Positions 45,212 through 63,932 of a stretch of 64,000 bases of DNA are shown here, piece after piece; positions within the stretch are counted from its first letter, which is position 1; every line of letters starts with the position of its first letter. Under the pieces are notes generated by a model. The model ran no database searches, had not been told where the DNA came from, and saw nothing but the letters and a program-made list of their open reading frames with translations. The translations under genes and the position numbers were made by a program. The stretch is from Bdellovibrionota bacterium FG-1 (GTDB lineage: Bacteria; Bdellovibrionota; UBA1018). The DNA lies in NCBI GenBank assembly GCA_051382295.1, contig JBBCAW010000003.1, forward strand, positions 63,351 through 127,350. Direction: 5' to 3'.

Positions 45212-45378
45212 GGTTGAATTTTGTCAGAACCGGTTTTGAGCCTTTTCAGGGTCTTTGGCACCGCGCTGGGAGGGGGGCTTTAGGACGTATTCTGGGGCGT
45301 ATTAATCCAGAATCCGAGCACTCTTACCGAAATCCGAACGGCTAACGGCCCAGAATCCTCGTAATATCGAGGTAAGGT

Positions 45379-45394
45379 CGGCACTAGATTTGCT
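45379..45394 (+). promoter_or_regulatory. Sigma54 -24/-12 promoter of small-peptide locus 1
   Basis: CGGCAC-TAGAT-TTGCT (GG-N10-GC); the same spacing is conserved at locus 2. Confidence 0.7.
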
Positions 45395-45470
45395 TTTGTG
45401 GTCCCTGCCAAACCGCGCAGAGTGGACGGAAACACCTCCTTTCCTTCGTGAAAAAGAAAGGAGGCATCCT

Positions 45471-45611
45471 ATGAAAAGTAATAGAAAGCTCTATTATGCT
45501 CATCGGATCCGACTTGAAAAACTCAAATTTAAATCTTGGTGTCTTTATGTCCTCGCCAAGCTCTTGGTTTTTCTAGTCAAAACGGTAGCCGACTACCTAG
45601 GACAAATCTGA
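45471..45611 (+). CDS. 46-aa cationic/hydrophobic peptide, candidate type I toxin (locus 1)
   Basis: GAAAGGAGG SD paired with upstream CCTCCTTTC; MKSNRKLYYAHRIRLEKLKFKSWCLYVLAKLLVFLVKTVADYLGQI; paralog at 63632-63763. Confidence 0.75.
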   Translation: MKSNRKLYYAHRIRLEKLKFKSWCLYVLAKLLVFLVKTVADYLGQI

Positions 45612-45756
45612 GGTGCCCCGGGTGCAGCATTTAACCGGAGATCTCAGGATGAGAATTCTGTGCGGTTTGGTTTTGAAAACCCACCGCCGTTGCGATAGTG
45701 GATCCGGCGCAATAAGCGCAAGGGTTTGGTCGGGGTTTGAGCTTCCGAAAGCTGAT

Positions 45757-46631: not shown

Positions 46632-47465
46632 TTAGCCGAGCAGTTTGAGGGCAAGTTGAGGGTTTGCGTTCGCTTGACTCAAGACCGAAATATTGGCTTG
46701 GGTCAAGATGTTCTGCTTCGTCAGCTCCGAGGTTTCCTCGGCCATATCTGTGTCACGGATACGGCTATTGGCGCCTTCTAAGTTTTCGCGATAGATGCTC
46801 ATATTGTTGATTGCCGACGAAAGTCGGTTTTGAAGGGCGCCGAGCCCTGATCGGTTTTCACTCAACTTGACAATCGCTTGGTCCAGCATATTGAGGTTTT
46901 GCTGGGCGGTCTCTTTAGTGAGGGTTGAGACACCCTCGAGGTTCATTGCCCCGAGCGTCGTGTTGCGAGCGGGGGAGTCATAGATAAATCGATCCAGTGT
47001 TGGATTGTTATTGATCCCGATCTGAATATCTAGAGGCTCCGCAGTGCCATTCAACAGTTTGGTACCGTTGAATTCGGTCGAATTTGAAATTCGATTGATT
47101 TCTTCTTTGAGACTTTGAACTTCTTTATTGATAAACCCGCGTTCTGTGTCGCTGATCGTATCAGAGGCGCCTTGGATCGACAGCTCGCGCATACGAATTA
47201 AGACGTTGCCGATCTCGTTCATCCCACCTTCTGCTGTTTGCACGAGTGAGATGCCATCGTTGGCGTTACGGGTGGCCTGTTTCATCGAGCGGATGTTGGC
47301 CTTTAACTTTTCGCTGATGGCCAAGCCGGCGGCGTCGTCGCCTGCGCGGTTGATGCGACTACCCGAGGCTAATCTTTCGAGAGCCTTGTTTTGGGCATCA
47401 TGGTTGGCATTTAAGAATCGTTGTCCGGCTAAAGACTGGATATTTGTAGCGATACGCAGAGCCAT
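46632..47465 (-). CDS. fliC: Flagellin (short, 277 aa)
   Basis: RI.TN, LERL.SG.RINRA.DDAAGLAISE, R..LGA.QNRL, SRIRD.D.A.E, L.QAN..PQ..L.LL. Confidence 0.97.
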   Translation of the reverse strand: MALRIATNIQSLAGQRFLNANHDAQNKALERLASGSRINRAGDDAAGLAISEKLKANIRSMKQATRNANDGISLVQTAEGGMNEIGNVLIRMRELSIQGASDTISDTERGFINKEVQSLKEEINRISNSTEFNGTKLLNGTAEPLDIQIGINNNPTLDRFIYDSPARNTTLGAMNLEGVSTLTKETAQQNLNMLDQAIVKLSENRSGLGALQNRLSSAINNMSIYRENLEGANSRIRDTDMAEETSELTKQNILTQANISVLSQANANPQLALKLLG

Positions 47466-47550
47466 AATTCAATCTCCTTATTTTGTCTTCATGACCTCCT
47501 CCGTGAAACTGTTTTGCGGTCTTGCAATCCCTGCCTGACCTACAACACTC

Positions 47551-47577
47551 CTATCGGTGCAGATTTTTCCTACTTAA
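47551..47577 (-). promoter_or_regulatory. Sigma28 promoter of flagellin
   Basis: TTAAG-N14-ACCGATAG. Confidence 0.75.
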
Positions 47578-63532: not shown

Positions 63533-63631
63533 TGCGCCCACGAGTAGGGGCGGCCATCGCGGGGGAAACCAAACCGAGCAGCCCTCTCATCATGAGAACT
63601 CCGGTTTATGCTGCACCCAGAGTCACCTCAC

Positions 63632-63763
63632 TTATCTTAGGGAATCGACCAGGTTTGCTAGAAAAAACAAAAACTTAGCCAAGATAAAGAGGAGCCAAGT
63701 TTTCTGTTTAAGTTTTTCTAGCTGGATCCGAGAAGCATAACAGTCGTTTCTGTTATTCTTCAT
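63632..63763 (-). CDS. 43-aa cationic/hydrophobic peptide, candidate type I toxin (locus 2; absent from the ORF track)
   Basis: AAGGAGGTG SD paired with CACCTCCTT; MKNNRNDCYASRIQLEKLKQKTWLLFILAKFLFFLANLVDSLR, homologous to 45471-45611. Confidence 0.75.
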   Translation of the reverse strand: MKNNRNDCYASRIQLEKLKQKTWLLFILAKFLFFLANLVDSLR

Positions 63764-63838
63764 AAGGATCACCTCCTTTCTCTATATAAGGAAGGAGGTG
63801 GTTCCATCCACGCTGCTCAGTTTGGCAGAATCCCTATC

Positions 63839-63854
63839 AGCAAAACTGATGCCT
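63839..63854 (-). promoter_or_regulatory. Sigma54 -24/-12 promoter of small-peptide locus 2
   Basis: AGGCAT-CAGTT-TTGCT (GG-N10-GC). Confidence 0.7.
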
Positions 63855-63932
63855 ACTTTATCCGTGGTTTATTAGGCCTGGCGCCCATTTCCCAGTCCGA
63901 GTGGACGGGATTCGGACTTGAAAGGGGGCCTC

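Follow-up and report, generated by a model that had tools for sequence, protein, structure and literature searches.

The purpose of chromosomal type I toxin–antitoxin (TA) loci is hard to settle, partly since few of them have been tied to a defined programme. TisB, a membrane helix that is amphipathic and carries charges on one face, is a toxin tied to a DNA-metabolism regulon, its gene being LexA-controlled and divergent from the antitoxin gene istR-1. Type I loci in general are described by an mRNA of 150–400 nt, a protein of 20–60 aa, an antisense RNA of 60–200 nt, a Shine–Dalgarno (SD) sequence sequestered by an anti-SD, and long-distance 5'–3' pairing or end structures (PMC8594479). In hok/sok and ldr/rdl, a silent full-length mRNA with paired ends is combined with an antisense RNA overlapping its 5' part and with a membrane peptide (PMC8594479); in E. 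coli, the competence activator Sxy upregulates hokD (PMC11951105). The aapA/IsoA loci of Helicobacter pylori have the antitoxin promoter inside the ORF, an antisense RNA over the leader, anti-SD hairpins, 5'–3' long-distance pairing, several chromosomal copies and a small hydrophobic peptide (PMC6733600).

The locus presented here lies in a window of 64,000 nt, the whole stretch of Bdellovibrionota DNA that was analyzed. The initial annotation, which saw two copies, had read it as a sigma54-driven, end-paired mRNA for a small membrane peptide and as a candidate type I toxin-like system, perhaps developmentally triggered. The type I toxin-like reading was supported by our analysis, which added the prediction of an antisense RNA transcribed from a separate promoter within the ORF and failed to reproduce, by folding, the activation by 3' trimming known from aapA and hok. 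The suggested developmental trigger was narrowed to an enhancer common to DNA-uptake/recombination genes and to FliA on the antisense side. We consider it probable that the loci represent a new multicopy type I TA-like family of one uncultured Bdellovibrionota order, wired to sigma54 and FliA, whose peptide damages membranes and which works like aapA/IsoA; this judgement covers the explanation as a whole.

In the modelled sizes of mRNA and peptide, in the SD sequestration and in the 5'–3' pairing, the family appears to agree with the type I features. It resembles aapA/IsoA in every trait listed above, the antisense RNA being predicted here, and departs from it in control: aapA/IsoA has −10 boxes and aapA3 is expressed constitutively (PMC6733600), whereas the family has promoter motifs of sigma54 with an enhancer on one side and of sigma28 on the other. 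In aapA3, the SD is held by a long-range pairing and the mRNA becomes active upon 3' truncation (PMC6733600), whereas in the family the SD is held locally and was still paired in silico after cuts of 20–120 nt. The peptides are longer than AapA (41–53 aa), with a basic N-terminal half, and are set apart from it by description. Unlike the hok/sok and ldr/rdl products they have no Pfam match, and their hydrophobic segment is C-terminal; the leader ORF of hok/sok has no regular counterpart, since an ATG was seen only in some of the leaders inspected. The amphipathic membrane helix and the tie to a DNA-metabolism regulon recall tisB/istR-1, but here the antisense RNA overlaps the ORF, and lexA has neither the palindrome described below nor a sigma54 box. 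The toxTA locus of Haemophilus influenzae is likewise a TA locus of a competence regulon, with frequent deletions of the toxin gene; unlike the family, it is a single-copy type II system with a protein antitoxin, proposed mRNA cleavage and CRP-Sxy control (PMC6957337). Because the profile tests gave no assignment and the truncation step was not reproduced in silico, the family was not filed under any known system. Searches of mainly the open literature yielded no type I system under sigma54 or FliA control and none from Bdellovibrionota; T1TAdb and the candidate tables of Fozo 2010 might alter this picture. The family carries its putative triggers in its sequence, sigma54 with an uptake-gene enhancer for the toxin and FliA for the antitoxin, and its 25 intact copies in one genome are a striking expansion.

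Architecture and distribution of the loci

Locus 1 is read on the plus strand. The sigma54 −24/−12 promoter of the peptide mRNA, CGGCAC-N5-TTGCT, is found at 45379–45394, just as it had been annotated, and the sigma54 geometry would put the +1 near 45405. Two palindrome-like sites precede it: a candidate sigma54-activator enhancer with a weak match at 45305–45319, 74 nt upstream of the −24 box, and a site matching GTCCGA-W3-TCGGAC in 11/15 positions at 45325–45339, 54 nt upstream of the box. Folding and covariation place the 5' strand of an end-to-end helix, CCAAACCGCGCAGAGT, at 45408–45423 and its 3' strand at 45655–45670, so that the claimed pairing over 16 bp, two of them G-U, could be seen again; in nascent or 3'-trimmed RNA, folding also allows the 5' strand a small 5' hairpin. 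The SD (45456–45464) pairs in the fold with the anti-SD (45435–45443). The ORF of the candidate toxin (45471–45611) translates, as expected, into 46 aa: a basic N-terminal half and then an amphipathic hydrophobic segment carrying a central Lys. A purine tract that resembles an SD lies at the stop codon (45609–45615); it is complementary to the anti-SD and is a possible competing partner of it, and the 3' hairpin domain (45620–45654) contains the near-invariant GGGTRCAGC at 45620–45628.

On the minus strand, the ORF of locus 1 contains a FliA/sigma28-type promoter at 45500–45526 (−35 TTGAGTTT at 45519–45526, 11 nt, −10 TCCGATGA at 45500–45507), a motif match to the consensus of PMC3627812. From its position and the wobble asymmetry described below, an antisense (antitoxin) RNA of ~90 nt is predicted at 45405–45493; with both ends thus placed, it would span the first codons, the SD hairpin and the mRNA 5' end.

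The paralog at 63569–63854, locus 2, is read on the minus strand and has all the elements attributed to it. A palindrome site (63903–63917, 11/15) stands 63 nt upstream of the −24 box, and the sigma54 promoter (63839–63854) is followed by the 5' strand of the end helix found by folding (63812–63825), the SD hairpin (63772–63799; anti-SD 63790–63799, SD 63772–63780) and an ORF of 43 aa (63632–63763). The 3' region (63569–63618) comprises the 3' motif (63610–63618), the hairpin domain and the 3' strand of the end helix (63569–63582). The antisense FliA-type promoter, TTAAGTTT-N11-TCCGAGAA, is on the plus strand at 63708–63734 and scores 13/16.

An iterated peptide profile found 27 matches at E < 0.01 in the host genome (4.44 Mb, 51% G+C), the next match having E = 1.9, and a search with a DNA profile distinguished 25 full-length copies from one internally deleted copy and three remnants. 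Among 401 Bdellovibrionota genomes, the peptide profile matched 21, the host included, all of them of one order, when the best 17 or fewer candidates per genome were scored; one match, in a long ORF, is probably false, so that about 20 genomes have members. Copy number runs from 0 to 25 among related genera. The working set consisted of 73 distinct copies, 26 from the host and 47 from other genomes, after five matches without a start codon were dropped, and the RNA analyses were performed on 59 complete copies, 14 having been excluded for a missing promoter or 3' motif. As the copies are kin, all such counts overstate their independence.

The family proteins form 58 clusters at 50% identity. 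Its 41 database proteins are nameless or "hypothetical". Named records that carry copies are titled Bdellovibrionota, Oligoflexia, Bdellovibrionia, Bacteriovoracaceae, Bdellovibrio sp., Deltaproteobacteria and one Lysobacteraceae, the last record (L081) being either a mislabelled bin or a transfer. The intact peptides (57 copies) have 41–53 residues, an N-terminal half with a net charge of +3 or more in 57/57 and a 19-residue hydropathy of at least 1.6 in 50/57, the remaining seven being weak in this respect; AlphaFold2 predicted a single helix (pLDDT 83). These values bear out the basic N-terminus followed by a hydrophobic helix of the initial annotation. The reading frame is preserved through length changes, with the other five frames open in just 0–5 of 57 copies, and subfamilies within one genome differ at over half of their residues. 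No leader peptide is evident in the alignment. Searches of Pfam, NCBIfam and PHROGs with 25 members at E ≤ 1 gave scattered weak matches of one or two members and no type I toxin model, and a PDB search gave no match, so the peptide still stands outside known families. The best ESM Atlas match (0.84) is nameless, and a TisB cluster, with a non-significant 0.75, is a lead only. The peptide is a candidate cationic amphipathic membrane toxin.

Genes flanking the copies are unrelated from site to site, and no integrase or phage families were detected at E ≤ 1e-5 among 115 flanking ORFs of the host and other genomes. Viral contigs (64 pattern matches, none confirmed) and the plasmids searched contained no family copy, and carriage by phages or plasmids was ruled out on these grounds. 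Type II toxin-like genes (HipA, PIN, Fic) were noticed near a few copies. DUF4423 genes stand beside three copy clusters (L099, L100 and L104), and HipA, PIN and nucleotidyltransferase genes beside others; some family sites may be small variable islands. One copy (L028, C56:22936) directly follows dprA-topA and another (C13:110152) is ~2.3 kb from recA, which among 25 copies is probably chance. Independent internal deletions have fused the initial ORF half with the 3' end (L086, L090–L094, L006 and L036, the last at C9:1594–1834). These copies retain both promoters and the end helix and are possible orphan antitoxin genes, assembly errors being an alternative.

Folding and covariation of the sense mRNA

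Both rpoN and fliA are present in the host genome. Sigma54 control of the mRNA, claimed from locus 1, gained weight from the family: the box GG and GC occurred in 26/26 copies of the host and, by best-match search, in 34/46 others. The modelled transcripts have 215–319 nt (59 copies, predicted ends). Folding z-scores were −5.2 for locus 1 and −7.3 for locus 2, with none of 200 shuffles equally stable. Relatives kept both the ORF and the pairings: 57/59 complete copies have an end helix with 10 bp or more, the transcript ends having been chosen to favour that helix, which biases the z-scores of these folds, and the sequestration of the SD by an upstream anti-SD, reported for locus 1, recurred in 57/59.

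Among the 25 paralogs, 8 of the 13 pairs of the end helix showed changes on both sides, and 96.6% of cells were paired. The covariation values of the two-helix structure were reached in 0 of 500 shuffles, a figure that is not a probability, the paralogs being related. The helix is presumably functional as RNA of the sense strand, because its pairs accept G-U but not A-C (51 vs 3 as read on the sense strand). The fold of the 3' domain also favours the sense strand in 48/59 copies, and that of the distal ORF in 44/59. The loop motif GGGTRCAGC is exact in 47 of the 59 complete copies, in which no pairing partner was found for it, and it is possibly a protein or nuclease site. A ribozyme or a c-di-GMP riboswitch, considered for the 3' motif and the leader because of a resemblance, was rejected on the lack of an Rfam match. 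The Rfam 15 covariance models gave nothing at the gathering score within the window and nine sub-threshold matches in 10 loci, the best with 37.6 bits vs 97; the sub-threshold matches, mir-31_2 and BTnc231 among them, were dismissed as hairpin look-alikes.

In the folding model the SD remained ~94% paired after 3' trimming by 20–120 nt, and opening it cost ~15–17 kcal/mol for all RNA forms tested. Compared with ORF windows, the purine tract at the stop paired best with the anti-SD in 52/55 copies, but it lowered the opening cost only from 17.0 to 14.8 kcal/mol. Activation by 3' trimming, by 5' trimming or by the post-stop tract was thus discarded, since in each case the SD stays costly to open. 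Because removal of the 3' end leaves the SD paired in the model, the activation step of aapA and hok is not transferable as it stands.

The FliA-type promoter inside the ORF

On the opposite strand, codons 10–19 spell a FliA/sigma28 promoter in all 73 copies: 71 have a box scoring at least 11/16 at an 11-nt spacer, and the other two score 12 and 13 at a 12-nt spacer. The consensus used for scoring is the one which we take to be that of sigma28. Two additional metagenome copies have a box of 13/16. A score of 12 or more occurs in the genome at 5.8e-5 per position, and the family accounts for 9 of the 66 genome sites scoring at least 13. The mean score was 12.37 vs 9.17 ± 0.14 under synonymous recoding, with a maximum of 9.74 in 2000 draws. 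The codon of Arg12 is CGN in 72/72 and that of Leu18 is CTN in 69/69, while other Arg codons of these ORFs are AGR in 98/221 and other Leu codons TTR in 159/516. As recoding scores far lower and these two codons are fixed, the amino acids do not explain the box.

The −35 bases are mostly unpaired in the mRNA fold. The conservation of the −10 comes partly from mRNA pairing, and changing the T before Arg12 destabilised 45/58 folds. In the SD hairpin, G-U wobbles of the antisense type outnumber those of the sense type (110 vs 23), and the hairpin fold is stabler on the antisense strand in 51/59 copies; part of this asymmetry could stem from selection that weakens the sense hairpin. Because the box exceeds what the amino acids need and the leader wobbles favour the antisense fold, an antitoxin RNA of ~90 nt is predicted, with 68–99 nt across the copies when measured up to the mRNA start. 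A terminator-like end of this RNA was absent in 33/59 copies, and the remainder had no common end. Ten damaged copies, in which the hydrophobic half is partly or wholly lost, retain the sigma28 box, a pattern which is biased and therefore weak evidence because the searches required the N-terminal half.

In B. bacteriovorus, the FliA consensus TTAAG-N16-CCGATA was found at 92 of 140 attack-phase promoters, small RNAs included (PMC3627812), and FliA promoters are attack-phase promoters (PMC12622784). Most family copies have N15 instead, as has the flagellin gene of the window, and three copies fit N16 better. The passages of PMC3627812 on this regulon mention neither "toxin" nor "RpoN". FliA is known as an attack-phase regulator in B. 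bacteriovorus, but it is not known as such in the order of the host. The flagellin gene at 46632–47465 has a FliA-type box, TTAAGTAG-N11-ACCGATAG, on the minus strand at ~47550–47576, 85 nt upstream. The host has six flagellin genes, with plausible FliA boxes at three.

The upstream palindrome, DNA-uptake genes and the proposed mechanism

The palindrome GTCCGA-W3-TCGGAC stands 43, 54, 63 or 74 nt before the −24 box and is often doubled 20 nt apart; in the host copies a position-specific peak is seen at offsets 54 and 74. A score of at least 11/15 was reached by 23/26 host copies, 12/32 copies of other genomes and 121/1500 random windows, counts that are circular within the family because the consensus was hand-drawn from its copies. 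As an independent test, a model trained solely on family copies was scored on 324 non-family sites, where it ranked ssb 1st, comM/yifB 2nd, a gene for an XPB-like helicase 5th and dprA 9th. In the host genome, palindromes of 12–14/15 are in phase at dprA (C56:19269), comM (C33:21195), ssb (C13:117720) and radC, the last with 14/15 and a weak sigma54 box, whereas comEC (C33, ~23400), comF (C8, ~36570) and recA have sigma54-like boxes and a weak or absent palindrome. We take dprA, comM, ssb, radC, comEC and comF to be typical competence-regulon genes, as in other bacteria. A sigma54 box together with a palindrome of at least 12 was met in 1 of 2000 random windows. A LexA/SOS site was considered for the palindrome and rejected: it is absent at lexA, and the pair at recA is ~350 nt upstream, inside the preceding gene, without a phased box.

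In the bacterial family of the host, a sigma54 box precedes dprA in 18/22 genomes vs 2/22 in-gene controls and comM in 12/19 vs 2/19, counted among the best 30 loci from 60 (dprA) and 61 (comM) matching genomes. The phased palindrome with box was found at 3/30 dprA and 5/30 comM loci, one of them in the host. Putative sigma54 control of dprA/comM-type genes across this family is thus well supported, while an activator common to these genes and the toxin-like loci would be supported mainly in the host. It is probable that Bdellovibrionota of this family possess a sigma54-dependent competence regulon. Searches of mainly the open literature for competence in connection with sigma54 or Bdellovibrionota gave no such system, and the enhancer offers a handle on the control of DNA uptake in these bacteria. 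The host has 25 listed sigma54 activators. Its ComEC homolog, a 740-codon frame at C33:23359–25578, was missed by the Pfam Competence model and found by homology to the proteins of relatives; ComEC has diverged in this family and is easy to miss (9/36 detected).

Altogether, the following mechanism is proposed. A sigma54 activator would bind the tandem palindrome and fire the promoter, whose motifs are visible and whose activity is predicted. Because ssb, comM, dprA, radC and the repair helicase gene share the layout of palindrome plus box, the mRNA is probably co-made with DNA-uptake/recombination genes. The mRNA of ~270 nt would be kept silent, as folding and covariation suggest, by the local anti-SD that locks the SD, by the frequent pairing of the start codon and by its joined ends. 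From inside the ORF, FliA would transcribe the ~90-nt antisense RNA, predicted to form two hairpins over the leader and the start codon, which would block translation and probably trigger decay. After a drop in FliA activity or loss of the locus, the surviving mRNA might be trimmed or refolded, possibly with the help of the purine tract at the stop, and then translated; this is the weakest step. The cationic amphipathic helix would finally enter the inner membrane and arrest or kill the cell. A membrane toxin would then likely arise solely in cells with the DNA-uptake programme on and the flagellar programme off. That the toxin array computes this state (uptake on, attack phase off), and so resists curing by transformation or lyses a subpopulation that releases DNA, is a tentative and rather doubtful extension. 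If it were true, the modules would borrow the sigma54 competence enhancer of the host, stable toxin mRNA would be loaded just at the time when the locus is at risk of deletion by incoming DNA, an addiction against transformation curing, and a previously undescribed sigma54-dependent competence regulon would exist in Bdellovibrionota.

The same RNA wiring might serve a peptide that is a non-lethal effector of the DNA-uptake state, such as a membrane modulator or a growth brake, with the sigma54/sigma28 pair setting its timing and the copy number raising its dose. The enhancer layout common to ssb, comM and dprA, the neighbours free of integrase and phage families and the absence from the viral contigs and plasmids searched would suit such a role, but the patchy range, the different neighbours at each site and the repeated loss of the hydrophobic half do not, and triple translational silencing is a need of toxic products (PMC8594479); we find it unlikely. 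A lytic peptide directed outward against siblings or prey, freeing DNA for uptake in a fratricide-like manner with the antisense RNA just as a timer, is less likely still. Its strongly cationic amphipathic helix, the co-regulation with DNA-uptake genes and the divergent subfamilies in one genome would fit, although the neighbours include no conserved transporter or immunity gene, the alignment lacks a leader peptide and antisense control could not protect a producer from exported peptide.

Two further alternatives concern the RNAs themselves. The sigma28 match might be a by-product of the R-x3-EKLK sequence and the mRNA stems in a small gene silenced in cis, without any antisense RNA. In its favour, the −10 region pairs in part with the start-codon region, these ORFs show codon bias throughout, also beyond the promoter (e.g., Phe TTT in 49/50), and no antisense terminator was found. 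The synonymous null, however, lies well under the observed score, and three copies with altered amino acids keep the box or even raise its score with a 12-nt spacer. Moreover, AGG at Arg12 is never used though the fold would be as stable or stabler in 40/50, the Arg12 C is unpaired in 32/59 folds and the wobble asymmetry does not depend on the promoter, so that this reading appears highly improbable. We give almost no credence to a miniature inverted-repeat mobile element, with the end helix as terminal inverted repeats and an incidental ORF. The many dispersed copies with complementary ends and a palindrome near three transposase-like ORFs would be expected of one, but conservation extends past the repeat arms to promoter and enhancer, the tolerance of G-U without A-C on one strand is an RNA signature, and the frame is kept despite the length changes. 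The type I TA-like reading with membrane-damaging peptide is therefore preferred.

The palindrome was also observed, with 14/15, at 99 nt before three near-identical ORFs named transposase-like by eye (C18:7431, C141:21792 and C106:14926), either as an element end or through co-regulation. Strong sigma54 boxes with a palindrome precede unannotated DNA or a contig end at C85:57, C85:1720, C14:7517 and C8:94143, and these sites may belong to other regulon members or small RNAs.
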